Origin: Longimicrobiales bacterium
GTDB lineage: Bacteria > Gemmatimonadota > Gemmatimonadetes > Longimicrobiales > Gaopeijiaceae
DNA length: 64,000 bases
Direction of reading: 5' to 3'
NCBI GenBank assembly: GCA_965116905.1
Contig: OZ220732.1
Span: forward strand, 672,001 to 736,000
This document shows positions 42,250 through 60,205 of the stretch, one piece after another. Position numbers and translations under genes: made by a program. The notes beneath the pieces are model-generated. The model was not told where the DNA came from, ran no database searches, and saw only the letters and a list, made by a program, of their open reading frames with translations. Numbering within the stretch: position 1 is the first letter of the stretch; the number at the start of each line of letters is the position of its first letter.

Positions 42250-42310
42250 GGTGGGGTCCTGTCGGTTCGGTGAGTCCTTCTGTACGCGGCCCGCATCCCA
42301 TGCAGTCGCC

Positions 42311-42532
42311 TCAGAACTTCTTCCCGCACATGTCATCGTCCAGGCAATTGAATCGGAACATGCAACAGTTGCCGCAGCAGTACGGGTCTCCCGCCACGGT
42401 TTGCTTGCAACAGTGGAAAAGGAAGCCCGAACTGGACGCAGCGGCCGCGGCCTTCGGGGTGGCGAGTGTCAGTGGCAGCAGAGCCGCGTTCGCCGCGACC
42501 GCGAGCAGGATCCATAGGAGTCTCTTTTTCAT
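42311..42532 (-). CDS. Secreted Cys-rich mini-protein (8 Cys)
   Basis: GGAG RBS; Sec signal MKKRLLWILLAVAANAALL...; mature part CC-x9-CC-x2-CC-x5-C-x5-C. Confidence 0.7.
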   Translation of the reverse strand: MKKRLLWILLAVAANAALLPLTLATPKAAAAASSSGFLFHCCKQTVAGDPYCCGNCCMFRFNCLDDDMCGKKF

Positions 42533-42579
42533 TTGTCGTTCTCCAGTCTGTGCTTAAGGGGTGGATAGCGGTACATCCG

Positions 42580-43128
42580 TCAGAGTGCGTCAATCGCTTC
42601 TATCATCTGTTCCAACCGGCGGCCGTGCCCATCGAAACGAAGCACACCAGCCGAATCAAACACAAAGACCCAAGGCGTCCTGGAAAACAGAGGGTACATC
42701 GGGTCGGCAGGCGTCAGCGCTTCCGAGCTGAGGACATCTACATCCCAACCAAAGCGTTCGGCATAGGCCACCGCCGGCCCCACGGAATCGTTGGTCACCG
42801 CGATTCTCTGCGCGAAAGGTCTGTCGGTCTGGTCGGCAGCGAAGTGCTCCGCCCATTCCGGCGCCACAGCGTGACAGTGCACGCAATCCGGATGGAAGAC
42901 GTACAGGATCGTAGGAATGCCGGCATCGGTAGCGAGTCGAATGGTCGTGGGGACATCGCCTCCGAAGCTCCCCGTCAAGGCGAGCAAGGTGTCCCCGACG
43001 ACCATTTCGGCTGCGGTCGCCGACGGAGAGCCCACTTGCTGAGCCCGACTGACCGCCAGGACAGCCTGGCTGCCGACCCCCGCCACGAGCAAGAACAGCA
43101 ATGCGTTCAGCCAGTGCGTCGTCTTCAC
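42580..43128 (-). CDS. Membrane-anchored thioredoxin-fold (CxxC) protein
   Basis: N-terminal TM; LYVFHPDCVHCHAVAPEW; TPWVFVFDSAGVLRF (cis-Pro loop). Confidence 0.75.
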   Translation of the reverse strand: MKTTHWLNALLFLLVAGVGSQAVLAVSRAQQVGSPSATAAEMVVGDTLLALTGSFGGDVPTTIRLATDAGIPTILYVFHPDCVHCHAVAPEWAEHFAADQTDRPFAQRIAVTNDSVGPAVAYAERFGWDVDVLSSEALTPADPMYPLFSRTPWVFVFDSAGVLRFDGHGRRLEQMIEAIDAL

Positions 43129-43267
43129 GATGAGGCGCCTCTCTGGATGGAGTGCGGTTTGGGCTGCTATACCTCTCCAAACGCAAGAGGGCTGGTCCGA
43201 ATACTGTCATTTTCCGACACAGGGCCCGGCCATCCCGTCTTTTCGGATTCCCGGCCCGGACCGCCCT

Positions 43268-43771
43268 TCAGTCCTCCTCCATCCAGTCCATCAGCAGTAC
43301 CCTCATCTCCGGCATCTTTCGCAGCTTTGACATCGTCCGGTTGAGGATCGATCGTGCTGCAGATTGGCTCACTCCAATCGTTTCCGCGGTCTGCTTCAGG
43401 TTACGGCCCATGACCCCCCACACCGTCAGAGTGTCGCGCTCGCGGTCGGTAAGCCGGCTCAAGGCGGCTTGCACGATCGGTTGGGCTTCCTCCCGGCGCA
43501 CCTCGTCCAGGGGATCGCACCAATCCGCCGCCACCTCCATGGGGCTCGCCATTGGCACCTCCACTGCTCGAACCCGCTTCTCCGCCCGTAAGGCGTCGAC
43601 ACAGCGGTTCTTGCTGAGGGTGATTGCCCAACGAGCGAACGAACCGTTCCACTTGAACTGATCCAGCCGCTCCAGGATCGCCAGCCAACAGTCCTGGAGG
43701 AGGTCCTGAGCGTCGTCGTCGTCCCTGGCATACGGGCGAATCGCAACCCAGATGCGAGGGCTGAGTTCCAC
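43268..43771 (-). CDS. ECF-type RNA polymerase sigma factor; 5' end probably frameshifted
   Basis: DAQDLLQDCW, FKWNGSFARW, NRCVDALR (region 2); LSRLTDRERD...AETIGVSQSAARS (region 4). Confidence 0.8.
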   Translation of the reverse strand: MELSPRIWVAIRPYARDDDDAQDLLQDCWLAILERLDQFKWNGSFARWAITLSKNRCVDALRAEKRVRAVEVPMASPMEVAADWCDPLDEVRREEAQPIVQAALSRLTDRERDTLTVWGVMGRNLKQTAETIGVSQSAARSILNRTMSKLRKMPEMRVLLMDWMEED

Positions 43772-44007
43772 GACCAGCTCACGCAGAAGGTCCTCGTCGC
43801 GGTTGTGAAGCCGCTCGATATCGACTGGATCAGTGATCGATCAGTGCCTTCGCTGGCTGGACAATTGTGGGCATCGACGCCGCCGCGTTCTCGTCTCGTC
43901 TTCTCAGTGCGGTTGGAGCGCACCGGACCTAAAGATAGGCCAAAAGAGCCGCCGGGTACCGGACCGAACTGGAAGTCACGTGGACCGCTGGTTACCATTG
44001 AAGAACG

Positions 44008-45201
44008 ATGGGACTTCTAGCAACGCTCACGGGATCCAAAGCGGTCTCCCGAAAGCCAGTACCCGTGGGGTTCGCTGGCTCAGCCGTCCGTTGGTTTCTG
44101 GGACTGAGCGCGTTGTACGTCCTTTATGCTTCGGCCAACTTCGTCGGTTTCGCCGATGATCTCCGGATCGTCAACCGGCTCGGAATGGTGTTGGGACCCA
44201 CGATGGCGGCCTTGTCACTTCTGGTCGCGCCAGCCACCTTCGCGGCGGCAGCTGGCGACTCCGCCACCAAGGGGCGCGAGCGCGGAACTCTCCCCAAGCA
44301 AGTCGTGCGGTTGGTACTCCTCGCTCTAGGTGCCTATGCGTTGTACGGGGTTGGACCGCGGCTCAGTTCGGCCTTGCTGGTTGTGGAGGGCCGAGCCCCC
44401 ACCGTGGGCGCCACCTCGCAGATCGTGGACAGCGCTCGTTTCTGGGTGCCGAGCACAATCGCCATCTTCACTGTCCTCGCGGGTGTCGCGGGCGGGATTA
44501 CAAGCCGACTTGCGGAGTGGTGGAATCCCGGGCGGCGAGTCACGATGATGTGGTTGTCCTTTCTCGGCTTGTTCCTTTCCTTCTGGCTGCCGCTCCTGCT
44601 GACGACCAATATGATCCTGCACAGTGGCGTCGCACCCGCATGGATACTGCCAGGCTCTCTCCTGCTTCCCACTATTCTGATCGCAGGGATCGCCTGGTGG
44701 CAGGCCGAAGGTCTGCACCTACCGAATGTTCTTCGCCGTCGTCGAGGCCAGGACGGTCCGCACCACCGGCCCCGCCTCGACCGCGTAGACCGCGCCGTCA
44801 ATCCACCTGCTGACAGACCCGACGAGCCCGCCATTGCAGCGGCTACCGCCACCCGGGCCGAGCTGGAGATGATTCATCTGGCCAAGGGGATCCGCAGCGT
44901 GATCGGTCCCAGCGCCAATCTCTCACCGCAACGCGTGGACGAGATCGTCAACCGCTTGGTCGATGCTCCGCGGACTGAGGCAACCAGGCAGGAAGGGGCC
45001 CGGCGAGCACCTGACCGGATCCACCGACCGGCGACCGTGGGTCAATTCTGTACGAACTGGGCCTGCCTCGCGGCAGTCTTGCTGATGGTCGGGATGCTGG
45101 GTGGGGTGCCGCCCAATCTCGCATTGGCAGGGCTCGCGGGCTTGCTGGGGTCTGTCCTTATTCGGACGACAGCGGCCGGGACACTCAGCATGGCTCGGTA
45201 G
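44008..45201 (+). CDS. Hypothetical multi-pass membrane protein
   Basis: About 8 hydrophobic segments; divergent from the sigma gene. Confidence 0.55.
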   Translation: MGLLATLTGSKAVSRKPVPVGFAGSAVRWFLGLSALYVLYASANFVGFADDLRIVNRLGMVLGPTMAALSLLVAPATFAAAAGDSATKGRERGTLPKQVVRLVLLALGAYALYGVGPRLSSALLVVEGRAPTVGATSQIVDSARFWVPSTIAIFTVLAGVAGGITSRLAEWWNPGRRVTMMWLSFLGLFLSFWLPLLLTTNMILHSGVAPAWILPGSLLLPTILIAGIAWWQAEGLHLPNVLRRRRGQDGPHHRPRLDRVDRAVNPPADRPDEPAIAAATATRAELEMIHLAKGIRSVIGPSANLSPQRVDEIVNRLVDAPRTEATRQEGARRAPDRIHRPATVGQFCTNWACLAAVLLMVGMLGGVPPNLALAGLAGLLGSVLIRTTAAGTLSMAR

Positions 45202-46045: not shown

Positions 46046-47059
46046 TCAGGTAGCCTCCACTGACGGCGATGGTTGATCCGGTTGCCCCGCACCATTGCCG
46101 ACACCCACCTCGCGGTTTTCGTGCTGCCGGAGGATTTCGGCTATTTCCGCTTTGATTCCTGGTTCTAACGAAATGAAGCCTGACTCCGATTCCTTTGGCT
46201 CGACGGCGACGAACCGGTTGAATTTCTCCCAGTACGACGGCAGGAATTCGTTCGCCTCATATGGCGACTGGATCCCAGCGTCGGCCAGTTCTTGCGGCAA
46301 GGCCTGGCGCAGGATTCGGAAAGAGCGCTTGTAGATGCTTCGGGCCCCAGGTCGGCATGAGGGTAGCACGTTGACGCCCAGTTTCCGCATCGCTTCAGAG
46401 AACCGGCCTGTTTCCCGACGGTCATCGTGATTCCGCAGCGCTCGACCTACGTGAATTGCGTGAAACAGCCCGTTGGATACGATGGTCTCATGGATGGTGC
46501 GAAACCGACACCAGATCGTCTCGCTTTCGACGAATAGTCCGGAGTGAACGCGATCACTCGCGTCATCGACCAGTGCCACCAACTCCCAGGTCCGCTTCGG
46601 CAACCACTGATAAGTGCAACCAGCCTGGTGAAGCAGTCGCCCCTCGGCGAGCTGCCGACCATCGCATTTTGGCGTCGACCGAGTGGAACGGCGTGGGGTC
46701 ACGAGGCCCGACTCGTGCAGATGATTCTTGGCCCAAGTGTATGACCGTGTACCCCCATGGGAGTCCCTGTACGCTCGGTAGAACTTGCGTACAGGCCATC
46801 CCCGGTACCGTTCCGCGTAGAGTGCTACCAACGCGGCAACTTCCTCGTCAGGTGCCCTTCGGGGATTCGTAGCCCGCCGATCTTCAAGCCCCTTCAGGCC
46901 CATTTCCCGGTACCTCGCGACGTATCGTCGGAAGGTCCGTTCAGAGATTCCCAAGAGGTATGCCGCGCGCGACTGACTGATATCACGGCTCGTCCACTGC
47001 TCATAGACCTCAGCAAATCTGGCCGTTCGCAGGTCGCGCATGGTAGATGTCTTGCTCAC
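46046..47059 (-). mobile_element. Degenerate ISNCY-like transposase (HTH + integrase core)
   Basis: AAYLLGISERTFRRY...GLEDRR, SYTWAK, LVDDASD; the expected HQDGS catalytic Asp reads HQAGC. Confidence 0.7.
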
Positions 47060-47224
47060 TTAGCACTCTCACAGTTGGGTCGCTTGTTCTGGCCGCTCCA
47101 ACCATTTGAAACGTCAGGAAGTCAGGGAGAATACTGTCATTCCCCGACATTGCGCCCAAAGCGAAGGCGATTTTCGCATGGGTCGCCGCGCTCCGAGTAC
47201 ATCCAGAGTCGCCTTGGCTGGACT

Positions 47225-48590
47225 TGGTTCCCATTCCGGCCAAGCCGACCACCGATTCCGCCAAGCCGATCGCAGATTCCAGGCGCGATGCCGATCACCG
47301 TCAAAGGAGCGGAGGTCCCTAGGCGCGCTGGGTGGCGGGTGAGGATTGGAGTTTAGGGTGTTGAGTCGGACTTCGTCGAGTCGTAGAGCCGTCTCATCGA
47401 AGTGCCTTTGACAGTGATGCGGTGAGTGTTGTTGAGGAGCCGTCCGAGGGCGCACGTAACGGCATTGTTCCCGATCGGTCTTCTCGCATTCGAGAAGCAG
47501 AGAGAGGCGGTCGTCGAAGGAGAACTCGCTGATGTCGGGCATGGCGGTCTGCTCCTTGAAGGCCTGGGCCATGCCCGAGAGCCGGAGTTCGTGGGGCAGG
47601 TCGAAGGTGGGTTGGCGAAGCATGATCGTCAGGACTTTTTTCCGTTGTGGGAGGTGGTGTAGTACTCGGGCCCGCGGATGTGGGCGCGCTCTGCAGGCAG
47701 GGAGAGTTCATGCTGCTCGGCGGCGGCTTGGTCGCGGCCGGTTGCGAGGATGAAGTTGACGGATCGGTAGCTCAGCGTTCCGAATTCCAGCGCATGGTGG
47801 CAGGCGACCTCCAGACGTTCGGCCGAGTAGGCGCGCAGCGGGCTCATGAGCCCGAAGACAGCTGCGGTAGCCCTGTTCGAGGTGGGGTCGGCTCTCGAGG
47901 AGTTGTGCGATGAACCCGGCCGTGTGCGGTCCGGCCTTGCGGCCCCAGGCGATGAGGCGCGACGGAGTCCACTCGACGTGGGCGCGGTGGGCAGCCGGCA
48001 TGTGCGCCGGTTCGGCCGCGTATCCTCCTCTCCTGTGGATCCGCAGGTGCGCGGCCACCCGTCGGTGCTTGTGGAAGATCTCCACGGTATGGGCAGTGAT
48101 CCGAACGTCGACCTCGCGGCGGGCCAGCACGTGGGGACGCTGTACAGCGCGTGCCCGGTTTGGATGTGGTAGTCGATGTTCACGCGGGCCTTGCGCCACT
48201 CCGCGTACTCGTAGTGCTCGGCCGGGAGTGGCCTGAGCGCCGGCCGGTCCAGATCCTTGAACCAGCTGCGACGGCTGCCGTCGGTCTTTGTCGAACGGCC
48301 GCTCGTTCAGTGCCGCCAGCAGCGGCCGGGTGGCCTCGCGGAGCTCGCCGAGGGAGAAGAACGTCTGGTTGCGCAGCGGCGCCATGATCCAGCGCTCGAC
48401 GTTCTGGACCGCGGCCTCCACCTTCGTTGTCCCGTGGAGAGCCGGGCCGCGCCGACAGCACGGTGGTTCCGTAGCGGGTGGCCAGTTCCTAGTACCGGAA
48501 CACCTTGTACTCGCTATACCGGCAGCCTGTTGATCTAAGTATGTTATTCCCAATGGCATCACTGATCGGCATGCACCGGAATCAGCAGCT
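47225..48590 (-). mobile_element. Deleted and frameshifted IS21-family element (istA/istB relics with terminal repeats)
   Basis: istA pieces KVEAAVQNVERWIMAPLR and VNIDYH...YSVP; istB N-terminus LRLSGMAQAF joined to C-terminus RLLNNTHRITVKGTSMRR; repeats ATTCCGGCCAAGCCGACCACC at about 47233-47300 and an inverted copy at about 48560-48584. Confidence 0.8.
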
Positions 48591-48805
48591 ACTTGAGCTG
48601 CCCGAGGGCAGGTGGCGGAACGGAAAGTGAGACACATCGGCGACATCGGCGACTTGCCGTGCCATCGCTCCGTTCATGGAAGAGTCGCGCATCCGCTTCA
48701 GAACGCCCGCTGACCAATGGAGAAGCGGTAGGGCGCTTCTCCTAAGGTACGCCCCCAACAATGATCGCACCGTCCAGGCTACCGCAATCCGGGACATCTC
48801 GCTCG

Positions 48806-50008
48806 TCAGGATCGCGCCGCTACCACCTCATAAACCACCACATTCTGCACGTCCATTTCGTCCCTGAGCACCCCCAACACCAGCCCTCCGGTCACATCGA
48901 GGATTCGGAACCTGGGCGGAGTCTCAACCTGTCCCAGCCACTCCCCATCCGCGGAAATGACCGTGTACGGCGACCCCTCTTCCGGGTAGGCCGGCCGGTA
49001 GGAGGGCAACCATACGTTTCCGTCGGCGTCGGCGAAGGGGGTACCGAAGAGCGGTATCGGCTGTCCGATCATGGCACGATACCGGGCCATATCTCCCTGA
49101 ATGATCTCCTCGAGTCGGGCCTCGGATACTTCGAAGTTCATCCGGCTGATCATTCGGGTGTAGGCCTCGCCGTGCTCCAGGAGTTCCCCGGTCAGCAGGT
49201 TGGGCCCGGGCTGCCAGCGCACGATCTGCTCTACCGTCCCGTCCGTCCGCCGCCAGGTGATCTCGGGCCTGTCGGTCCTGGTGTAGACGAACCGCCCCGC
49301 GGCGGTCGTGACCTCGCCACTCGGCCGGATGATCGGCCTCGGCTGTCCCGACCGCTGTCGCGGGACGTGGTCGTACGACGCGACCGTGTCGAGCGCGCCG
49401 GTCTCGGTATCGAACAGGGTGATGTGCCCGGCGAGCCACTCCTCCTCTATATCGACCCAGGAACGGTAGGCGTATCGGTTCCAGAGCAGCAGCTCACCGG
49501 ATGAACCGATCCCCGCCACACCGAACTGGTGTCCCCGAGGGAGGCTCACGATGCGCGCGACCGAACCGCCCACAAAGAGAGTGAGGCGAGACAGGCGATC
49601 ATCGGGCACAAGGACGCTGTCCTGGCCCAGGACGAACAACGAGTAAGCGGAAATGACTTCGCCCGGTCCTTCCCCACGGCTGGCGAGGACCTCGTACGTC
49701 GTCCCGTCCGGACTCAAGACGACCACCTCGCCAGACCAATCGGCAACGACCGCGCGTCCATCGGGGAAGAGCCGGCCGGCGTCGGCGAACTGGAAGATGT
49801 AGTCGCCTGGGCCGCCGCCGTGGCGGTAGATCGGCCCTCCCGCGATGGCGAAGGGCGGCTCGACCTCGGGCACGCCCGTATACTGCACGATCCGGGCGCC
49901 GGCGCTGTCCGAGATCTGGACCGGGATGTCACGTGTGCCGGCGCTGTCTCCTTCGCAGGCGCCGAGGGCTGCCGACAGCATCAGAGCGCACTCGTGTCTG
50001 CGTCGCAT
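48806..50008 (-). CDS. 6-bladed beta-propeller lipoprotein (subfamily A; close paralog of 21169-22383)
   Basis: LGAC lipobox; long identical stretches such as TLFDTETGALDTVASYDHV and GTPFADADGNVWLPSYRPAYPEEGSPYTVIS. Confidence 0.75.
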   Translation of the reverse strand: MRRRHECALMLSAALGACEGDSAGTRDIPVQISDSAGARIVQYTGVPEVEPPFAIAGGPIYRHGGGPGDYIFQFADAGRLFPDGRAVVADWSGEVVVLSPDGTTYEVLASRGEGPGEVISAYSLFVLGQDSVLVPDDRLSRLTLFVGGSVARIVSLPRGHQFGVAGIGSSGELLLWNRYAYRSWVDIEEEWLAGHITLFDTETGALDTVASYDHVPRQRSGQPRPIIRPSGEVTTAAGRFVYTRTDRPEITWRRTDGTVEQIVRWQPGPNLLTGELLEHGEAYTRMISRMNFEVSEARLEEIIQGDMARYRAMIGQPIPLFGTPFADADGNVWLPSYRPAYPEEGSPYTVISADGEWLGQVETPPRFRILDVTGGLVLGVLRDEMDVQNVVVYEVVAARS

Positions 50009-50071: not shown

Positions 50072-51562
50072 TCAAGTGATCACCGTCACCTGTGTCAAGG
50101 CCGCGCGGGCCGAAGAGATATCACCCCCCGCCATCGCCTCAATGAGGTCGGCCACCCATTCCGGCACCCCGAGGTCCAGCAAGAAACCGATGAAGGTCGC
50201 GTGGCAGTTAGGGTTGAGATGGGACAGAGCGGCCGTGGGCACCAAGGTGTTCAACAGCACGCGCGAGGCGGCGTAGTAGTCGTCGTCAAAATCCCAGACG
50301 CCGCTCGTGATACGCTGCTTCCGGAAGAAACCGGGAGTAGTCCAGGTACTGAGCACCGGCATCAAGTGTTCGTCTTTTCCCACACGGATCGCTGCCTCGA
50401 AATCGATGAGCCGAATGTCCCAACTATCGGCATCAACCATCACGTTGTTGCTGGACAGATCCGATATGATCACCCCACGGGCGTGGATTGCCTCGATGGC
50501 ATCGAGAAGCGACTCGGAGAGTCGATGGAACTTCGGTTGGATGTCGTTGAATGACATGCCGTTCCGCGCGTGGGGAAGCCACAAATTTTCAGGCTGACCG
50601 GCGGCAGTCCTCAGCATTACGCCTTGGATCTTCTCTGCCGCCATGAATAAGTGCTCCCACTCCCTGAAAAGCTTGATCGGGCGCACGGTGCAGTCCAATC
50701 CCTCTAGGTGTCGCAATACGTCGAACTCGTGCTCAAGGAGCAAATGGGAATCTATGGTGGCCGTTCCCCGCGTCGTCCGGTGCACGTGCGGTCGAGCCTC
50801 CTTGATAACGACCGTGCTCCCGGATTCCAGATCGATGGCTTCGTACACGCCCCCCCTGTTGTTGGCGGAGATCATCGCCGTGACCTCGAACGAGCCGCCG
50901 ATCACCGCTCCGTCGTCTTCTTCGCCGGACTCCTCGAAGGGATCTTCAACCCACGGCGGAAGCGAAAAAAATGCTTGGCGCTGGTCCCGCATCTCGCTCC
51001 CGTCCGGCCCCGTCAACACGGTGACCTCGAATCCGTCGGGCGTGAGTCGGCTTCGGGGCCTCATCCCTCCGTAGCGATAATACAGGACTTTGCTGTCTTT
51101 GTACCGTCGATCAGAGAGGATATACTGGCCTACAAAGTCCTTCCCTGCAGTCTCTTTGTACAGAGTCTCGAGCAGATTCAGGAATGCCTCATGGTTCGGT
51201 GGATAGATTGTTATGAACTTGCCTCCGCCACCCCGATCACGGTTTTTGCCGTTTTGGAATTCGAGAAGCTCAGGGCCGGCGGTGCATTTGAACGAAATGT
51301 CGCGTGCGACACATACTCTCGTCACGAGCCCTAAGAGCTCCTTTGCGCAATCAGGAATGCTAGAGACGTGGATCTTGAATCCCTGCTCAGGCACTTGGTG
51401 GACGAAGCGGTCGACCTGCAACCAGATATCGTGACGGCGGACATGCCACCCCGATTCCGGCAGGTATGATAGCACCTCATCCCGGAAATCACTCCGGACC
51501 GGCGCGAGAGCCGGCGCCTCGTACCATTGCTTGCTCGCTAACTGGTGCGCGTTTCTACTCAC
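50072..51562 (-). CDS. Stand-alone class III lanthipeptide lyase-kinase (LanKC N-terminal two domains, no cyclase)
   Basis: Lyase motifs QGFKIHVS, GKFITIYP, YILSDRRY...YYRYG; kinase motifs GGVY, VVIKEARPH, HARGVIISDLSSNN, IDFE; ends soon after the kinase domain. GTG start at 51562 inferred (track ORF starts at 51700). Confidence 0.88.
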   Translation of the reverse strand: MSRNAHQLASKQWYEAPALAPVRSDFRDEVLSYLPESGWHVRRHDIWLQVDRFVHQVPEQGFKIHVSSIPDCAKELLGLVTRVCVARDISFKCTAGPELLEFQNGKNRDRGGGGKFITIYPPNHEAFLNLLETLYKETAGKDFVGQYILSDRRYKDSKVLYYRYGGMRPRSRLTPDGFEVTVLTGPDGSEMRDQRQAFFSLPPWVEDPFEESGEEDDGAVIGGSFEVTAMISANNRGGVYEAIDLESGSTVVIKEARPHVHRTTRGTATIDSHLLLEHEFDVLRHLEGLDCTVRPIKLFREWEHLFMAAEKIQGVMLRTAAGQPENLWLPHARNGMSFNDIQPKFHRLSESLLDAIEAIHARGVIISDLSSNNVMVDADSWDIRLIDFEAAIRVGKDEHLMPVLSTWTTPGFFRKQRITSGVWDFDDDYYAASRVLLNTLVPTAALSHLNPNCHATFIGFLLDLGVPEWVADLIEAMAGGDISSARAALTQVTVIT

Positions 51563-51581
51563 GACGCTGGGATGTGAAGGG

Positions 51582-52748
51582 TCACGAGGTGACGATCGCC
51601 GATGGTGGACACTCGACGTCGCCCACAAGATCGACGAATGGATTAGCGGTCGGCTGGAGCAGCCGTTGAAAGAAAAGCCCCACTCCAGCAGTACCAGCAA
51701 CGATATCGTTGCTGATCCGAGACAACCAGCGATCCGGATACGCGAACCCTTCGGGCCGGGGAATCCGATACAGCAGCAACGTTCGAGCGATGTCGGCGCA
51801 CCGATCGAGATACTCCTCTTTCCCCGTAGCGATGAAACAGTCGAGCATGTATTCGCCTATGCCGGTGAGTCCGCTTTCGAGGCCCGGCTGAATGGTCCAA
51901 ATCGATGCAGTTGCCTCAGCGATCGTCTCTGCAATCTCGAGATAGCGACGGTCGCCCAGTCCTAAAGACATTCGTAGCGCAACCCCCCCAATTCCCACAG
52001 CACCGCTTCCCCAATACGGAAGCACGACATTGCCCCCGGCGTACGCCGGCCATGTCCATCCGTGAGAGCCATCCCGCCGATGCGCAAAATCGAACTCGAA
52101 GGCCTTGATCGCCGACTCGACGAAGCGATCCTCCCCTGCCGTGTGACCGGCGAGCATGAGAAACAGTCCAACCCCGCTGGCGCCGAATCCATAGCCAAGA
52201 GGAGCCTCCTCGCCAGACATCGGAGCCCAGGTCAGGCCAAGTTCCTCACGGATGGCCGTCTTCACCAGCCACTGGGCAGCGGAAACGGCCCCTTCCAGAT
52301 ACTCTTGCCGCTGGGTCTTTTCGAAGAAGTACAGGCTCGTCATTCCCCAGCCAGCGTCACCGTGGAACATGGACGCTTCCGAGTGACGTAGCGGAGAGGA
52401 GTAGCTCAACGATATTGCCTCCTCCGCCTTTCTCGTCATGCCCAGTTCGGACAAGCAGTATCCGATTCCCGCCAAACCTAGCCAATAACCAGGAGCATAT
52501 CTGTCCGTACTCAAGTGTTGTCGCTCAATCCACTTGACCGTAGGGGCCGCTAATCCTCTCCCCACACGATATAGGAACAGCGCAGGTCCAACGGCTCCGT
52601 GGGCCAAGCTCATGGGGTTTGTACCGAACACTTCAACACCCGCTGGCCATAGGCGATCCGTTCGCTCCGGCGTTGCCGTGGCTTCAACGTAGTCCGCCAT
52701 GCCGTCCAGTGTCTGGCGGATGTCCTCTTTCAACTCGCTTGGGATCAT
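51582..52748 (-). CDS. Stand-alone class III LanC-like cyclase domain (no Zn ligands)
   Basis: Repeated G-x-x-G helix motifs (SLAHGAVG, WLGLAG, FHGDAG, GFGASG, WGSGAVG, LESGLTG); C-terminal FAYPDRWLSRISNDIVAGTAG as in LanKC; no WCHG/CHG Cys/His; ATG at 52748. Confidence 0.85.
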   Translation of the reverse strand: MIPSELKEDIRQTLDGMADYVEATATPERTDRLWPAGVEVFGTNPMSLAHGAVGPALFLYRVGRGLAAPTVKWIERQHLSTDRYAPGYWLGLAGIGYCLSELGMTRKAEEAISLSYSSPLRHSEASMFHGDAGWGMTSLYFFEKTQRQEYLEGAVSAAQWLVKTAIREELGLTWAPMSGEEAPLGYGFGASGVGLFLMLAGHTAGEDRFVESAIKAFEFDFAHRRDGSHGWTWPAYAGGNVVLPYWGSGAVGIGGVALRMSLGLGDRRYLEIAETIAEATASIWTIQPGLESGLTGIGEYMLDCFIATGKEEYLDRCADIARTLLLYRIPRPEGFAYPDRWLSRISNDIVAGTAGVGLFFQRLLQPTANPFVDLVGDVECPPSAIVTS

Positions 52749-52830
52749 TGCATTCCGTAAAAAAGGCGTTCGTACCCAACAAGGCAGCCGCAGCCTGCCG
52801 CCAGGTGACGTTAGACGGGCTTGGATACCG

Positions 52831-52898
52831 GCGTGAGCCACCTGCACCGCGGGGTGAAACCGAAGAACCGACCGCCGCGGTGCAGGGTGAACTCACGC
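52831..52898. terminator. Long stem-loop between the precursor and cyclase genes
   Basis: CCTGCACCGCGG (52841-52852) pairs perfectly with CCGCGGTGCAGG (52875-52886); outer arm GCGTGAG/CTCACGC. Confidence 0.6.
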
Positions 52899-52909
52899 AA
52901 CCGGGGCAA

Positions 52910-53053
52910 CTAGTTGTCGCCGGTATCGTTGCAGTGGATGCTGATCTCGGACGGCTCCATTTCGCCGCAGTAATAGCTGTACTTACTGTCGACCAAGGCC
53001 GTCGGGTCGTCCTGCGCGACGCTCAGACGCTGCAAGCCGAGGATCCTGCTCAT
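52910..53053 (-). CDS. Class III lanthipeptide precursor (LanA), 47 aa
   Basis: AAGGAG RBS 7 nt upstream of ATG; MSRILGLQRLSVAQDDPTALVDSKYSYYCGEMEPSEISIHCNDTGDN; ILxLQxL leader; two S-x2-S-x2-C motifs. Confidence 0.9.
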   Translation of the reverse strand: MSRILGLQRLSVAQDDPTALVDSKYSYYCGEMEPSEISIHCNDTGDN

Positions 53054-53460: not shown

Positions 53461-55338
53461 CTAGCGATACCCAGCCGCTTGAAGGGCGAACAGTTCGGCG
53501 TACTGACCTTCGGCATCCATGAGCACTTCGTGGCTGCCTTGTTCGAATACCGATCCATCTCTGAGGACGATGATGCGGTCGGCCATTCTCACGGTCGAGA
53601 ACCGGTGACTGATCAGAACGCCGATTCTGCTCGAAACGAGATCCGAGAACCGTTGGAAGACCTCGTACTCCGCTCGGGCGTCCAGGGCAGCGGTTGGCTC
53701 GTCGAGAATCACTATCTGCGCGTCGCGCATGTATGCGCGGGCGAGAGCGATCTTCTGCCACTCGCCACCCGAGAGTTCAGCACCCGACTGGAAACGACGG
53801 CCTAGCAGTTGCTCATACCCATTCTCCAGTCCACTGATGACGCGGGCGGCCAAGCTCTTCTCGGCTGCGGCCACTACCCGGGCCATGTCGTTGTCGGCCG
53901 CAACGCACCCCACTGCAATGTTCTCGCGTGCTTTCAAGTCGTAGCAGAAGAAGTCCTGGAGGATGACTCCGAATGCTCCCCTCAAGGACTCCAGATCGTA
54001 CAGCTTGAGATCCCTTCCGTCTAACAGGATCCGGCCCTCCGTCGGATCATAAAGACGAGTCATGAGCTTCACCAATGTCGTCTTTCCTGCCCCATTCTCT
54101 CCGACTAGTGCAACGCATTCCCCCGGAGAGATTTCGAGCGATACATCACGGAGGGCCCATCGCTCGGACCCAGCGTATCGGAACCCGACGTTCTCGAACA
54201 CCAGACCACGTCGAATGGGATTGGATACGATTATTGCGTTCACCGGAGAGACAATCGTTGAACGAACCTCGAAAAACTCAAAGAGATCTTTGACAAACAG
54301 CCCCTGCTCGTAACCTTGCGCGACCCCCATCAAGATCCCGGTGATCAAAGTGCGACTACGCTGGAAAGCCCCGGTCAGGAATGCGAGCGTCCCAATGGTA
54401 ATGATGCCCATCGCGGCTTCGTAGACGATCGTGGCCACGGCGCCGTAGTAAGCCAACGTGGATACCGACGCCAACAGAATGCCGGTAACAGTACGACTCG
54501 TGGCAACTCGACGGTGTTCGGCAATGTAGTCGTTTGCCAATGTCGAATACCTGTCGGCCAAATGTTCGGATAGACCGAAGAGCTTAATCTCCTTTGCTGG
54601 CAGGATATCGGTTGCGAGCCATCTGTAGTATGCCAACTCTCGGCGCTCTCGCGTCCACTGAAACATGAATGAGTAGGTGATTCCAGCGTACTTGGCCTCA
54701 CCGAGCACCGCTGGTAGCGTCGCCAACAAGAGAATAAGGAGCAGCCAAGGCTGGAAGGCGATGATTGCGGCAAGGAGAGACATCACCGTTACCGACTGCT
54801 GGCCGATCGTTAGAACCTGGGACAGTAGAGTGACGCGTCGGGACGTATGCACCCTCGCTCGCAAGAGCTTGTCGAAGAAGCTCGGATCTTCCAGCCTCTC
54901 TAGGTCAAGCACTCCGGCGTGACGCATCAAACGCACGGACAACTCGTTCGTGAAAAGTTCGCCTAGAAGATTCTCAAGCAGGCTTCCGATGCGTTGCAAC
55001 ACGTCCGACAGAAGGGCGATCGCCAACTCGAGTAGCACGAGCTTGATCAACAGTCCCCAGTTCAGAGGTGGCGACTGGACGCTGACGACGACGGCGTCGA
55101 TGATGAGCTTGCCTACCCACAGCATCGCGATTGGCATGAGCCCGACTAGTACGCGAACGGTCACGATTCCCAATGCGTAAGTGGGCTTAGTCGACCAGAC
55201 CAGCTTTACGAAGCGGGCGATGCTGCGAAGGGCCGCGAGCCGCTCCTTGATCGGCGGTATCGGCCGACCGTCACGGGTCCTAGGCCGATAAAAGGCGCCC
55301 GGCGTCACGGCAAGTGCTCGGGTGCCGTGGTGGCGCAC
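53461..55338 (-). CDS. ABC exporter (fused TMD + NBD, no C39 peptidase domain)
   Basis: TM helices; GENGAGKT, LSGGEWQK, ILDEPTAALD, ISHRFST. Confidence 0.9.
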   Translation of the reverse strand: MRHHGTRALAVTPGAFYRPRTRDGRPIPPIKERLAALRSIARFVKLVWSTKPTYALGIVTVRVLVGLMPIAMLWVGKLIIDAVVVSVQSPPLNWGLLIKLVLLELAIALLSDVLQRIGSLLENLLGELFTNELSVRLMRHAGVLDLERLEDPSFFDKLLRARVHTSRRVTLLSQVLTIGQQSVTVMSLLAAIIAFQPWLLLILLLATLPAVLGEAKYAGITYSFMFQWTRERRELAYYRWLATDILPAKEIKLFGLSEHLADRYSTLANDYIAEHRRVATSRTVTGILLASVSTLAYYGAVATIVYEAAMGIITIGTLAFLTGAFQRSRTLITGILMGVAQGYEQGLFVKDLFEFFEVRSTIVSPVNAIIVSNPIRRGLVFENVGFRYAGSERWALRDVSLEISPGECVALVGENGAGKTTLVKLMTRLYDPTEGRILLDGRDLKLYDLESLRGAFGVILQDFFCYDLKARENIAVGCVAADNDMARVVAAAEKSLAARVISGLENGYEQLLGRRFQSGAELSGGEWQKIALARAYMRDAQIVILDEPTAALDARAEYEVFQRFSDLVSSRIGVLISHRFSTVRMADRIIVLRDGSVFEQGSHEVLMDAEGQYAELFALQAAGYR

Positions 55339-55880: not shown

Positions 55881-57050
55881 TCAACTAGAGGGCACGGTGT
55901 GCCGCTTTGGATTCGAGACGGCATGGACATCCTCGTCCCGCACGCTCAACCTCGCGATGCGCCAAGGGGGGAAGTCCTTGTTGATCAGCAAGTAGAGAAA
56001 CCGTCCTCCCCCCAGAACCACAGAGTTTTCGGGCAGCGGCACGTCCTGATACAGCCCGGTACCAGTGTGGCGGTCATAAAGGTCAATCAGCACATGAGAC
56101 CACCGGAATGCCGTTCCTTGTGTCGCGTCATAGGTGGCCCTCGTAAACATGAGGTGGCGTTCAACCACATCGATTCGGTGAATGAATTCGAAACTGGCCA
56201 GGAAGTCACCAAACGAGGCGCCGTAGGCCTCGGAGCCCGCGAGAGCGCCTCCCTCCAACACCGGGATCGGCCGAAACGACTCTGAAGGCTCACCAATCAC
56301 GCCCACGGTATCTCCGTCAACGTTGAGGATCGTCGCAGGAAAACGGGCACCCGACATCGCGTAGATGGAGTCACCGCCGACCGCAATCGGCGTTCCCACC
56401 ATCGAACTCCAGTATGGCCTCTCATGTGTGAGGAACGGGTAGTTGAAGCCGCTCCAAGCCAGCTCCGCGCCGATGAGCCGATGAAGGATGGGCGGGCGGC
56501 CGCGCGAATCAAACCATGTTTCGTGATCAGCAGCCCGCGTCATACGTACTATCAGGTCCGGGCCCATCGCGATCACGCTCGTGGCCGGTCCAGGTATTGG
56601 CAACAGTGTGTCCGACTGCAGGTCACTGGTCAGGTAAGTCAGGTTCGACTGCAGAGAGTTCGGTACCACGATTGCGCCGGAAGCCGTTTCGGCAACACTG
56701 TTGATCCAGCGGAATTCGAAAGGACCGTCGCCGAATCTGCCAAACGATGCGACCAATCGACCGTTCTCGGCGTAGCGCCGAATCCTTGGCAGGAGATTGT
56801 CGCCAACAACGAAGCCTCCGTCCCGAAGCTCCGCAAAGGCGCCGATTTCGGCGATGGAATCGCCTGGGTCTTCTTGTAGTTCGATAACGTCCTCGACTTC
56901 GAACACCTGCTCGAAGGTCGCCGAGACCGGCTCCAAGTCGTCCGTGGACTCCGCTGCCTGCCCGCAAGCCACGAGCAGCGACGCAATTGGGATCGCAGAT
57001 AGGCAGCACTGGCGTGCCGGCCCACGACGGTCGTTCAAGACCGACATCAA
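55881..57050 (-). CDS. 6-bladed beta-propeller lipoprotein
   Basis: LVAC lipobox; YAENGRLVASFGRFGDGPFEF. Confidence 0.65.
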   Translation of the reverse strand: MMSVLNDRRGPARQCCLSAIPIASLLVACGQAAESTDDLEPVSATFEQVFEVEDVIELQEDPGDSIAEIGAFAELRDGGFVVGDNLLPRIRRYAENGRLVASFGRFGDGPFEFRWINSVAETASGAIVVPNSLQSNLTYLTSDLQSDTLLPIPGPATSVIAMGPDLIVRMTRAADHETWFDSRGRPPILHRLIGAELAWSGFNYPFLTHERPYWSSMVGTPIAVGGDSIYAMSGARFPATILNVDGDTVGVIGEPSESFRPIPVLEGGALAGSEAYGASFGDFLASFEFIHRIDVVERHLMFTRATYDATQGTAFRWSHVLIDLYDRHTGTGLYQDVPLPENSVVLGGGRFLYLLINKDFPPWRIARLSVRDEDVHAVSNPKRHTVPSS

Positions 57051-58143: not shown

Positions 58144-59490
58144 TCACCCCCCCACCACCACCCGGCTCACCACCAGCGTCGCCACATCGAACTCATCGCT
58201 CTCCAGATGCGCCACGAGCCCATCGGGTCCGAACGCGATCGGCATCGCCGGCTCCCCGGCCGACAGCGTCCCCACGTATTCCCGGTCCGCGTTGTACACG
58301 TCGATCGGCCCCTCGTCGTCCCACGGATTCTCACTGCGGCGCTGGATCCACAGCCCGCCGTCCCAGGTCGCCCTGATCCCCTGAACCACGGGGACTTCGT
58401 GGTAGAATTCGCGATCCCGAATTCTTCGGCGGCTCTGCTCGGGGTCCCTACCGATCGGCAGGCTCGTAGAGGGAGGAGTCGCCAACCACTCCTCAAGACG
58501 CTGAAGGTGGAAGGCGATCGTTCCCCGCCGGATCCGTTCCGACACCGCCTCCGGCAAGAGCGGCCGGCTCAGCACCTCGGTCACCGATCCATCGGGCGAG
58601 GTGAGCTTGATGACGTACGCCGAGGAGTCGGAATAGGCGATGGTGCCGTCGGGCAACACGTCCCAGTGAAACCCCGGCTCAAAGTACCGGTCCTCTACGG
58701 CCGCGACGATCGCCGGCCAGTCCTCCAGGCTCGTGGATGTTGGCGGCTCGGGACGCGGAGCCCGCCAACCCTGCAAAACCGGCTCCCTTGCGGTCACATC
58801 GCCGGAGAGGTCCAGCGCCTCGAGCGCGCGGTCATCGACGCCATCCGTTTCCTCGTCCGGGTACTCCATGAGCCGGTTCATGAAGTTCATCATCTCGACC
58901 AACACGCCCTCGACGCCGCGAGCGATAATCCTGTCGCCCAGCGGATCGGCCCGAATCTCCTCGTGACGAAGCGCGGTGGACAGCGTTCTTGGCTCGCTGG
59001 CCGACCTGACGAACCGCTCGAGTTCGCCGTCCGGGCTGAACACCTGGACCGCCGAATGCTCCGTGTCGGGCACCGCAAAGCGGCCGTCGCGCCACACCGC
59101 GAGCGCCCGTATTTCCTGAAACTCGCCCGGGCCCTCGCCCTCGCGGCCCACGACACGCACAAGCCGGCCATCGGGTCCGACGACGACGACCCGCTTGTTG
59201 AAGGCGTCCAGCACGAGCAGGTTGCCGGCTCCGTCGAAGCTCGCCTGCAAGGCAGGGACCGGCCCGAAGAGGGCCCACTCCGGCGCGTTCACGCCGCCCG
59301 CTCGATACACCTCGGTCACGTCCACGGTCAGCGGACGGTCCTGCGCGGCGGACGCGGTGGGGAGGATGGGGGCAAGGGAGAGGGTCAGGGCAATGGCCAG
59401 GGTCTGGGCCAGAGCCAGGGTCTGGGTCGAGCAAACGGCCGGGGCCTGCGCCAAGCCAATATGCACGGGAGGCGACAGGCGGTGTTTCAC
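58144..59490 (-). CDS. 6-bladed beta-propeller secreted protein (subfamily B)
   Basis: FDGAGNLLVLD, GREGEGPGEF, GPIDVY, AFGPDGLVA shared with 23177-24511. Confidence 0.7.
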   Translation of the reverse strand: MKHRLSPPVHIGLAQAPAVCSTQTLALAQTLAIALTLSLAPILPTASAAQDRPLTVDVTEVYRAGGVNAPEWALFGPVPALQASFDGAGNLLVLDAFNKRVVVVGPDGRLVRVVGREGEGPGEFQEIRALAVWRDGRFAVPDTEHSAVQVFSPDGELERFVRSASEPRTLSTALRHEEIRADPLGDRIIARGVEGVLVEMMNFMNRLMEYPDEETDGVDDRALEALDLSGDVTAREPVLQGWRAPRPEPPTSTSLEDWPAIVAAVEDRYFEPGFHWDVLPDGTIAYSDSSAYVIKLTSPDGSVTEVLSRPLLPEAVSERIRRGTIAFHLQRLEEWLATPPSTSLPIGRDPEQSRRRIRDREFYHEVPVVQGIRATWDGGLWIQRRSENPWDDEGPIDVYNADREYVGTLSAGEPAMPIAFGPDGLVAHLESDEFDVATLVVSRVVVGG

Positions 59491-59619: not shown

Positions 59620-59901
59620 GTGAAGACGCAGAGTTCGATGGTGCATGTCCGGATGGACACCGAGATGAAACGGAAGGCGACGGCAGCGCTCGCGGCGATG
59701 GGCCTGACGGCTTCACAGGCCGTGCGGCTCCTGTTCCATCGCATTGCCGTCGATCAGGCTTTCCCGCTCGAACTGAAGGTTCCAAACGCGGAAACACGGG
59801 CGGCCATGGCCGAAGTTGACGAGATGATCAACACGCGCGCGGCGCGATTCGCAAGCGCGGACGAGATGTTTGCGGAGCTTGAAGACGCCTCCGACCGGTA
59901 A
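59620..59901 (+). CDS. dinJ: RelB/DinJ antitoxin
   Basis: VHVRMDTEMK, GLTASQAVRL, FPLELKVPNAETRAAM. Confidence 0.9.
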   Translation: MKTQSSMVHVRMDTEMKRKATAALAAMGLTASQAVRLLFHRIAVDQAFPLELKVPNAETRAAMAEVDEMINTRAARFASADEMFAELEDASDR

Positions 59902-60205
59902 GCGGGCCAAACCGCCACGCCGGGTTGACTACTCCCGACGGTTCCTAAAGGACTGGAAGCGCCTCTCGCGTTCGGGTCGATACGACATGCACCGGCTGAA
60001 GGCGGTCATGCTCCTCCTCATCGCCAACGACACCCCGCTCGGTCCTGAATGGAGGGATCACGCGCTCAAAGGCTCATGGGCTCCCTACCGCGAATGCCAC
60101 GTCGGCGGTGACTTTCTGCTCATCTATCGCATCGACGACACAGACGGGCCGAGCGGTTCCGTCTACTTTGCCCGGGCCGGTACGCATGCCCAGTTGTTCG
60201 AATGA
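59870..60205 (+). CDS. yafQ: YafQ family toxin
   Basis: FLKDWKRL, DHALKGSW, RECHVGGDFLLIY, RAGTHAQLF. Confidence 0.9.
   Translation: MRSLKTPPTGKRAKPPRRVDYSRRFLKDWKRLSRSGRYDMHRLKAVMLLLIANDTPLGPEWRDHALKGSWAPYRECHVGGDFLLIYRIDDTDGPSGSVYFARAGTHAQLFE

Follow-up and report, generated by a model that had tools for sequence, protein, structure and literature searches.

The described systems closest to the locus studied here are ThurKC (andalusicin; PDB 8SAM/8SAO/8SAP) and a class III-c enzyme (PDB 9WJ0/9WOP), which is taken to be TherKC from motifs in PMC13504147. They share with our locus the lyase and kinase residues, including the DFE motif, a zinc-free cyclase fold, a hydrophobic LxLQxL-type leader and an N-terminal helix that touches the cyclase. 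Both are single polypeptides, whereas the window (the whole stretch of 64,000 nucleotides of Longimicrobiales DNA that was analysed) has two genes, with the cyclase first. The cores also differ, being Thr-rich with STxSNxC in ThurKC/TherKC and carrying two SxxSxxC motifs in the window. The precursors of LabKC (labyrinthopeptin), CurKC (curvopeptin) and EryKC (PMC8341899) resemble ours in carrying Sx2Sx2C twice, side by side, behind a leader similar to ILxLQ, but those enzymes are fused. In class I (LanB and LanC) and class V (separate kinase, lyase and cyclase), dehydration and cyclization reside on separate proteins, as in our locus. However, the window has no LanB (a scan of 13 ORFs in and around the cluster gave no match to the family), its kinase and lyase are still fused in the LanKC manner, and its cyclase lacks the Cys-Cys-His zinc triad, which is absent from all 43 split cyclases.

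A main difficulty in working out how zinc-free class III cyclases close thioether or labionin rings has been that excised cyclase domains often fail to fold by themselves and that mutations in the cyclase also disturb dehydration (PMC9828337, PMC10604976). Expression of the CurKC cyclase by itself was not achieved (PMC9828337), whereas the cyclase in the window is naturally encoded alone. ThurKC has been cut artificially at the same place as here, into a lyase-kinase and a cyclase; it was active only when both were mixed, the cyclase was required even for dehydration, and size exclusion revealed no stable complex between the two pieces (PMC10604976). While an engineered split is thus known to work in trans, the split seen here is natural and conserved, and has clade-specific residues at the predicted interface. 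A naturally separate cyclase would allow dehydration and ring closure to be run or mutated apart, and would permit mix-and-match engineering. Searches of open-access full text gave no description of a natural LanKC split. A large survey put LanC-like proteins under 'unclassified' when they had neither a fused kinase nor a LanB or LanM (PMC7268733), so a split family could easily be missed.

Table 1. Features of the cassette, in window positions.
Feature	Position	Strand	Basis
ABC transporter (membrane + ATPase, 625 aa)	53461..55338	-	Pfam ABC_tran/ABC_membrane
Precursor LanA, 47 aa	52910..53053	-	AGGAG ribosome site
Long stem-loop, directly 3' of precursor gene	52826..52901	-	Folding energy; arms complementary in L001/L002
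Cyclase, stand-alone, class III-type, 388 aa	51582..52748	-	Pfam LANC_like, NF038151
Lyase-kinase didomain, stand-alone, 496 aa	50072..51562	-	RamC_N + Pkinase, NF038151

The first-pass annotation had described a precursor, a cyclase and a lyase-kinase gene on the minus strand, about 20 bp apart. All three reading frames were found where it had placed them (Table 1) and the cyclase-to-lyase-kinase gap measures 19 nt, but the ABC transporter gene had been left out of the cluster. The transporter gene occupies the same place in a related contig, L001 (87% identity), and it is the likely exporter of the peptide. Departing from the one-polypeptide organization of a LanKC, the cyclase and lyase-kinase are two genes in different frames, with the cyclase first. 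All four frames of the cassette are open, and dN/dS is 0.13 for the ABC transporter, 0.19 for the cyclase and 0.16 for the lyase-kinase. L001 and L002, both MAG contigs, have the same gene order, with 83% identity and dN/dS below 0.2. The GTG start of the lyase-kinase aligns with the ATG start of its homologues, which rules out an upstream TTG start (51700). Elsewhere in the genome, our search found neither a fused LanKC copy nor a second precursor. A second LANC_like match, at C1:2346156-2347277, lies within a 922-aa frame without a lyase-kinase match.

The lyase-kinase matches Pfam RamC_N (7e-56) and Pkinase (3e-11), and spans positions 4-445 of the 833-position class III LanKC model NF038151 with 395 bits. 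All lyase and kinase motifs that had been claimed are present (KIHVS, GKFITIYP, YRYG, KEARPH, DLSSNN and DFE). Its lyase is of the LanKC type, with all eight ThurKC lyase residues kept: K63, H65, K92, K106, K115, D151, R163 and R195, corresponding in order to ThurKC K65, H67, K94, K108, K117, D152, R163 and R191. The kinase has the expected DF(G/E) motif; K254, D368, N373 and D387 are invariant across 41 homologues and E389 is nearly so.

The cyclase matches Pfam LANC_like (6e-23) and spans positions 483-831 of NF038151 with 215 bits, against 177 bits for the class IV model. Roughly summed, the two LanKC scores reach ~610 bits against a cut-off of 575, and the class IV model gives 498 against 650. 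The zinc-ligand positions, already claimed to lack Cys/His, are occupied by G247, E291 and S292; the missing zinc triad is a class IV (LanL) trait. The stretch RISNDIVAGTAG, thought earlier to be the C-terminal end of the protein, is residues 344-355 and is followed by 33 further residues. The cyclase model is an alpha/alpha barrel (pLDDT 87) with TM of 0.75 to ThurKC and 0.71-0.73 to CuvL, and in Foldseek the class IV CuvL and class III ThurKC rank about equally. The residues that mark class III-a/III-c cyclases (R610, D667, S726, F770 and D771) are replaced by F128, F188, G247, E291 and S292, so that ThurKC/TherKC R610, D667, F770 and D771 are not kept. The class III-b motifs of PneKC and SalKC (FPVHYYG, QxxQxxRxLPY and GxxxAGDxG; PMC11330476) do not occur in the sequence; by eye, WPAGVEVF and GFAYPDRW are the likely III-b-equivalent stretches. 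The cyclase has Ser where many split relatives carry His (248) or Asp/Glu (292). W341, at the predicted interface with the lyase-kinase, is found in 33 of the 43 split cyclases but in 0 of the 47 fused sequences, though these are kin and not independent.

The precursor has ILGLQRL in its leader and, in its core, S23-x-x-S26-x-x-C29 and S35-x-x-S38-x-x-C41. This agrees with the hydrophobic LxLQ-type leader and Sx2Sx2-5C core of class III precursors, a motif defined in PMC8341899. The match to NF038159 (class III lanthipeptide) is weak (E 0.0076, under the cut-off). The precursor in L001/L002 keeps 6 of 6 motif residues and 5 of 20 other core positions. The twin motifs and the ILxLQ-like leader predict two labionin or lanthionine rings. 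The 168-nt stretch between the precursor and cyclase genes folds at -75.1 kcal/mol (z -2.6), with 2 of 200 shuffles equally good. Both arms of the stem-loop have diverged in L001/L002 yet are still complementary in an alignment judged by eye; it is likely an RNA stabiliser or partial terminator. In a promoter and terminator scan, sites were no commoner than in shuffles (1 vs 2.0; 2 vs 4.7).

We consider it quite probable that the four-gene cassette encodes a two-protein class III synthetase that re-assembles in trans and makes a two-ring peptide for export. The leader ILGLQRL would bind in a groove of the lyase-kinase. Since the catalytic residues of the lyase-kinase are intact, Ser23, 26, 35 and 38 (perhaps also Thr44) would be phosphorylated and then eliminated to dehydro residues. 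The cyclase is predicted to dock on the N-terminal helix and the kinase C-lobe, restoring the interface of a fused LanKC, and may also be required to switch on the kinase, as in ThurKC. Cys29 and Cys41 would then add to dehydroalanines to give labionin or lanthionine rings, the ABC transporter would export the peptide, and a protease encoded elsewhere would cut off the leader. No leader protease is present in the cassette; a crude motif scan of the whole genome gave 0 M1-type and 9 S9-like frames, unlinked to the peptide.

Modelling of the complex, proposed along with the original claim, predicts that the two halves bind each other. The model scored 0.90 and the best of three controls 0.00, on a scale where the mark is attained by 116 of 157 solved pairs and 2 of 215 mismatched pairs. 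Contacts agreed to at least 95% between runs and the pLDDT of the partners was at least 91. The predicted interface includes W13 and Y14 of the lyase-kinase and W341 and R344 of the cyclase. The cyclase was folded without an alignment, and the score may reflect resemblance to solved fused LanKCs.

It is unlikely that the cyclase is a mere scaffold or activator for a dehydrating lyase-kinase, with rings closing uncatalysed or a product that is partly linear. The loss of the ThurKC/TherKC catalytic residues would fit such a role, as would the requirement of ThurKC for its cyclase in dehydration. The predicted interface takes in the invariant R344 and the P35-N44 stretch of the cyclase, and some of the conservation of this protein may therefore serve binding. 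However, fused relatives in the same clade also lack the ThurKC residues (F at 128 in 39 of 47) and class III-b employs yet another residue set (PMC11330476), so their absence is not diagnostic. In addition, the loop that according to the ThurKC paper holds an Arg or His in all models contains His129 and Asp131 in this cyclase, which together with E291 are candidate pocket residues, and the Ser/Ser/Cys motif is kept though the remaining core diverges.

A once-functional island that is now silent or decaying is very unlikely. Its spread is patchy, since 2 of the 53 genomes in the genus carry the cyclase intact, and decaying relatives exist: G017 retains a 3' remnant, and P0009 is a deletion fusion. 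The GC content of the cassette is 0.58 against 0.68 for the genome, IS fragments lie 1.4-4 kb downstream, and no Shine-Dalgarno sequence is visible before the lyase-kinase GTG. Decay is opposed by the four open frames, by dN/dS values of 0.13-0.19 for the three large genes, and by a sequence that is identical in the runs of two studies. Each of these studies yielded one contig that contains the whole cassette (5,778 and 8,410 nt), with 0 differences and 0 gaps, which rules out misassembly; the assembly itself may derive from one of these two runs. A third run, from a Hi-C library sampled at about 1 read in 100, gave 0 reads on the cassette and has no bearing on this point. No RNA library turned up among the runs that contain the sequence. 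An artefact of an ordinary fused lanKC, or recoding that joins the frames into a permuted cyclase-lyase-kinase protein, is extremely improbable: P0009, which joins cyclase residues 127-219 to a lyase-kinase, indicates that such fusions can arise, but about three quarters of the cyclase is missing from it, as if by deletion, the contigs of two studies match exactly, and both the frame offset and the gap vary among close homologues (19 nt here and in L002, an ATGA overlap in L001), which is at odds with a conserved recoding signal.

The claim of a real two-gene split, without frameshift or misassembly, is borne out by these contigs, by the conserved order, by purifying selection and by a clade of stand-alone enzymes. 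Homologues that are always fused, with inactivating changes in this copy, had been named as evidence against it. Of the 44 best protein matches to the lyase-kinase, in a search restricted to lengths of 272-868 aa, 42 have 473-532 aa and no cyclase domain. In a FastTree tree, a 58-row clade of stand-alone enzymes lies among fused ones with support 84 (100 for an inner 48 rows), and in a concatenated tree the window falls into a clade of 18 rows, all of them split (SH-aLRT 99). The trees thus assign the locus to a group of naturally split LanKCs that sits inside a wider set of fused enzymes. The identities of the two halves covary over 23 pairs (rho 0.81; 0 of 2000 permutations), 10 of them matched by record features (length of the contig, succession of accessions, species) and not by DNA. 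The split may have a single origin, which is not rejected at p-AU 0.23.

The cyclase-first order, for which a genome search had been proposed, was found in close relatives only: L001 and L002 have it, and none of 79 metagenome loci does. At 14 of these loci the two halves are separate genes in the ancestral order, and at several the stop codon of one overlaps the start codon of the next. Other split orders found are LK-C, LK-transporter-C and LK-precursor-transporter-C (LK, lyase-kinase; C, cyclase); the comparison covers groups other than the nearest sister group (P0011-P0016) and Streptomyces. The reversed order thus looks like a local rearrangement within a wider split family. The trees suggest that a fused LanKC first broke up into neighbouring LK and C genes; transporter or precursor genes would later have come to lie between them, and in the sub-lineage of the window their order would have been reversed.

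The lineage had been described as not obviously known for such RiPPs, but it does contain systems of this kind: within the same order, a strong match to the lyase-kinase occurs in 16 of 401 genomes, and of the 17 matches 13 fall in fused-length frames. A phylum-wide search around the Acidobacteriota genome of L002 gave matches in 3 of 401, two in fused-length frames. L002 may thus have been acquired by transfer, or its 3.2-kb contig may have been binned with the wrong genome. A plasmid search returned 47 records, the best 37% identical; among the 30 listed, 26 are annotated as lanKC and 1 as lanL, and 3 have no annotation.

Cultured Streptomyces also have stand-alone halves in the databases, namely S. 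virginiae (WP_033225500 / WP_266481822), S. venezuelae (QES53458) and S. exfoliatus, so testing need not depend on an uncultured organism. It is possible, though rather doubtful, that the split enzymes of Streptomyces, Myxococcota, Chloroflexota and Gemmatimonadota form an unrecognised subclass with a catalytic set different from those of class III-a, -b and -c, a reinforced interface and a swappable cyclase that sets the ring type. Many of the precursors concerned have adjacent Cys-Cys pairs, which may give extra cross-links.

The window cassette carries a class III lanthipeptide synthetase's enzymatic domains in two genes. The class III LanKC profile NF038151 (833 positions) is matched at positions 4-445 by the lyase-kinase (LK) and at 483-831 by the cyclase; each alone scores below the 575-bit cut-off and the rough sum is ~610, whereas the corresponding sum for the class IV model is 498 against a cut-off of 650. 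The zinc triad is absent from the cyclase. Pairs of Ser-x-x-Ser-x-x-Cys motifs, as found in the precursor, are described as a class III precursor pattern in one account (PMC8341899). The cassette shares domain content, a zinc-free cyclase and precursor type with class III systems but departs from their single-polypeptide organization, and is therefore filed as a split variant. Its chemistry is probably that of an ordinary class III system; for the peptide's role, signalling or antagonism are guesses by analogy with other class III peptides. The host genome, one contig of 4.21 Mb, contains no further lyase-kinase. It does contain a second LANC_like domain (L095, G000:C1:2346156-2347277) that closes a 922-aa frame lacking a LanKC lyase-kinase match, possibly a LanM-type enzyme.

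Genes of the split class III cassette, in order of transcription
Feature	Coordinates	Strand	Remarks
ABC transporter	55338-53461	minus	first in cassette
Precursor peptide, 47 aa	53053-52910	minus	leader ILGLQRL and two Ser-x-x-Ser-x-x-Cys motifs
Cyclase, 388 aa	52748-51582	minus	LANC_like (Pfam)
Lyase-kinase, 496 aa	51562-50072	minus	RamC_N and Pkinase (Pfam)

The first-pass annotation had proposed a genuine split, with the cyclase gene first, rather than a frameshift or sequencing error, and both points hold. Contigs from two studies (5,778 nt in run X1, 8,410 nt in run X2) each span the cassette with 0 differences and 0 gaps, although X1 or X2 may itself be the source of the assembly. A third run (a Hi-C library, ~1 in 100 reads sampled) gave 0 reads on the cassette and carries no weight either way. 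In two related loci, L001 and L002, the genes for precursor, cyclase and LK follow the window order at 83% identity; the transporter is also present in L001, and a genome of the same genus (G015) carries a locus with the same LK and cyclase as L001. Relative to L001, dN/dS is 0.19 for the cyclase, 0.16 for the lyase-kinase, 0.13 for the transporter and 0.87 for the precursor, whose core keeps 6/6 motif residues and 5/20 other positions in L001 and L002. At the junction, the cyclase and LK genes overlap (ATGA) in L001 and lie 19 nt apart in the window and in L002; this variation argues against recoding across the junction. The split in the window is real and conserved.

It is also not isolated. 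It had been asked whether homologues are always fused, and stand-alone halves proved common. In a search with the LK protein, which took in lengths of 272-868 aa and so left longer fused enzymes outside the candidate set, 42 of the 44 best matches were 473-532 aa long without a cyclase domain. Of 34 matches to the cyclase, 27 were stand-alone proteins (379-416 aa), and a profile search brought in others labelled as Streptomyces virginiae, Jiangella, Caldilineaceae and Longimicrobiaceae. Many Streptomyces have database entries for lyase-kinases of 513-546 aa that stand alone, and in two MAGs the halves are paired by consecutive accessions. The 79 metagenome loci comprise 52 fused ones, 14 with the two halves in separate genes, 1 that is broken, 10 that stop inside LK and 2 that stop at most 353 nt past it. 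Eight of the 14 have adjacent LK-C genes (L007, L014, L015, L019, L027, L032, L043 and L077), three of these with an ATGA stop/start overlap, and six have a transporter gene between the halves (L004, L005 and the near-copies L009/L010/L011/L013). None of the 14 is cyclase-first; the order precursor-cyclase-LK was seen in L001 and L002. Genomes add the orders LK-precursor-transporter-C (G131), precursor-LK-C (G520) and LK-C (G553). The window locus is thus a member of a widespread two-gene class III synthetase family. The family is apparently undescribed so far: no natural split LanKC was found in searches of the main texts of open-access papers. Divided lanthipeptide machinery has known precedents in split LanB and class V systems.

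Beyond the window, nine distinct precursors of the split clade were found, and six of them have adjacent Cys-Cys after Ser-x-x-Ser (L001/L002, L004, L006, L009, L093 and L114). In L005 a thioredoxin-like domain shares an open frame with the ABC transporter between the LK and cyclase genes, which may point to disulfide formation.

In the LK-domain tree (FastTree, 174 rows), the window falls in a 58-row clade (support 84; 48 inner rows, support 100) nested among fused enzymes and made up of 57 stand-alone proteins and one fusion, P0009; for protein-only rows, length decided whether they were called stand-alone, and 10 such rows lie outside the clade. P0009 (581 aa), in which cyclase residues 127-219 are joined in frame with the lyase-kinase, probably arose by internal deletion in a relative whose genes are reversed in the same way. 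For the cyclase, the tree contains an all-split clade of 34 rows (support 90), and six split rows are intermixed with near fused relatives. In a concatenated tree (IQ-TREE) of 23 split pairs together with 19 fused enzymes, the window belongs to an all-split clade of 18 rows (99) and, within it, to one of 10 rows (96) that includes transporter-interrupted types. A single origin of all 23 pairs is neither rejected nor proven (p-AU 0.23). Divergence of the two halves is correlated over the 23 pairs, 10 of them paired without DNA of the locus (rho 0.81, 0/2000 permutations), a value obtainable from shared descent alone. The path likely ran from fused to adjacent, then separated, then reversed genes. 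What stands out is the split itself; gene reversal is clean proof of it, yet a local rearrangement. L019 (1-7618) has two LK-C pairs in tandem with a permease gene between them; the second pair falls outside the main split clade and may have undergone fission independently.

Dehydration by the window LK is well supported by homology, since 8/8 of the lyase residues listed for ThurKC are conserved, as are the core motifs of the kinase. The cyclase is modelled as an alpha/alpha barrel (pLDDT 87), nearest to class IV CuvL and ThurKC (TM 0.71-0.75). Modelled together, LK and cyclase score 0.90 versus 0.00 for the best control, by a mark reached by 116/157 solved pairs and 2/215 mismatched pairs, with at least 95% contact agreement between runs and partner pLDDT of at least 91. 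The predicted interface joins LK 12-14, 173-179 and 441-460 to cyclase 35-44, 82-87 and 341-346; cyclase residues 33-43, of low confidence when modelled alone, are mostly interface in the complex. Because fused LanKCs are already solved, the high score may reflect mere likeness to them. In the ThurKC work, as far as one report describes it, the N-helix touches all three domains, and after a cut at the LK/cyclase boundary LK alone was inactive and the mixed parts were active without a stable complex (PMC10604976).

Two points speak against a working split synthetase: cyclase residues of ThurKC and the fused TherKC map to F128, F188, G247, E291 and S292 of the window protein, and position 292, which is Asp or Glu in 25/43 split cyclases, is Ser in the window sub-lineage. 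The ThurKC set is also missing from fused relatives of the window cyclase, and class III-b cyclases are described as using yet another set (PMC11330476); from this we infer that catalysis would proceed via other residues, perhaps H129/D131. With a zinc-free cyclase that occurs naturally as a free-standing protein, an open question on the mechanism of such cyclases can be tested directly.

The cassette is patchily distributed, occurring in 2/53 genomes of the genus, and its GC content is 0.58 versus 0.68 for the genome. In another genome (G017), positions 6560-6784 of L094 retain the LK 3' end alone, adjoining the gene that also lies downstream of the window cassette; this is a deleted copy of the cassette. 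Window positions 46046-48646 contain transposase fragments, among them an IS481-like HTH gene, and broken frames that we take to be IS21-like. A 48-nt stretch (47233-47280) recurs just beyond the cassette in L001. Either side of the cassette lie three secreted-looking proteins of 389-448 aa (48806-50008, 55881-57050 and 58144-59490) with weak beta-propeller/NHL matches and seemingly many similar copies in reads; they are absent from the L001 flanks. At 42270-45201, small ORFs adjoin a membrane protein judged redoxin-like by eye (no Pfam match), an ECF sigma factor and a further membrane protein; this may be another module for peptide export or regulation. Two short adjacent genes at 59620-60205 may be an antitoxin-toxin pair resembling the RelB/DinJ-YafQ type. 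Elsewhere in the genome, 17 tRNA genes are arrayed within 2 kb (G000:C1:1296478-1298432).
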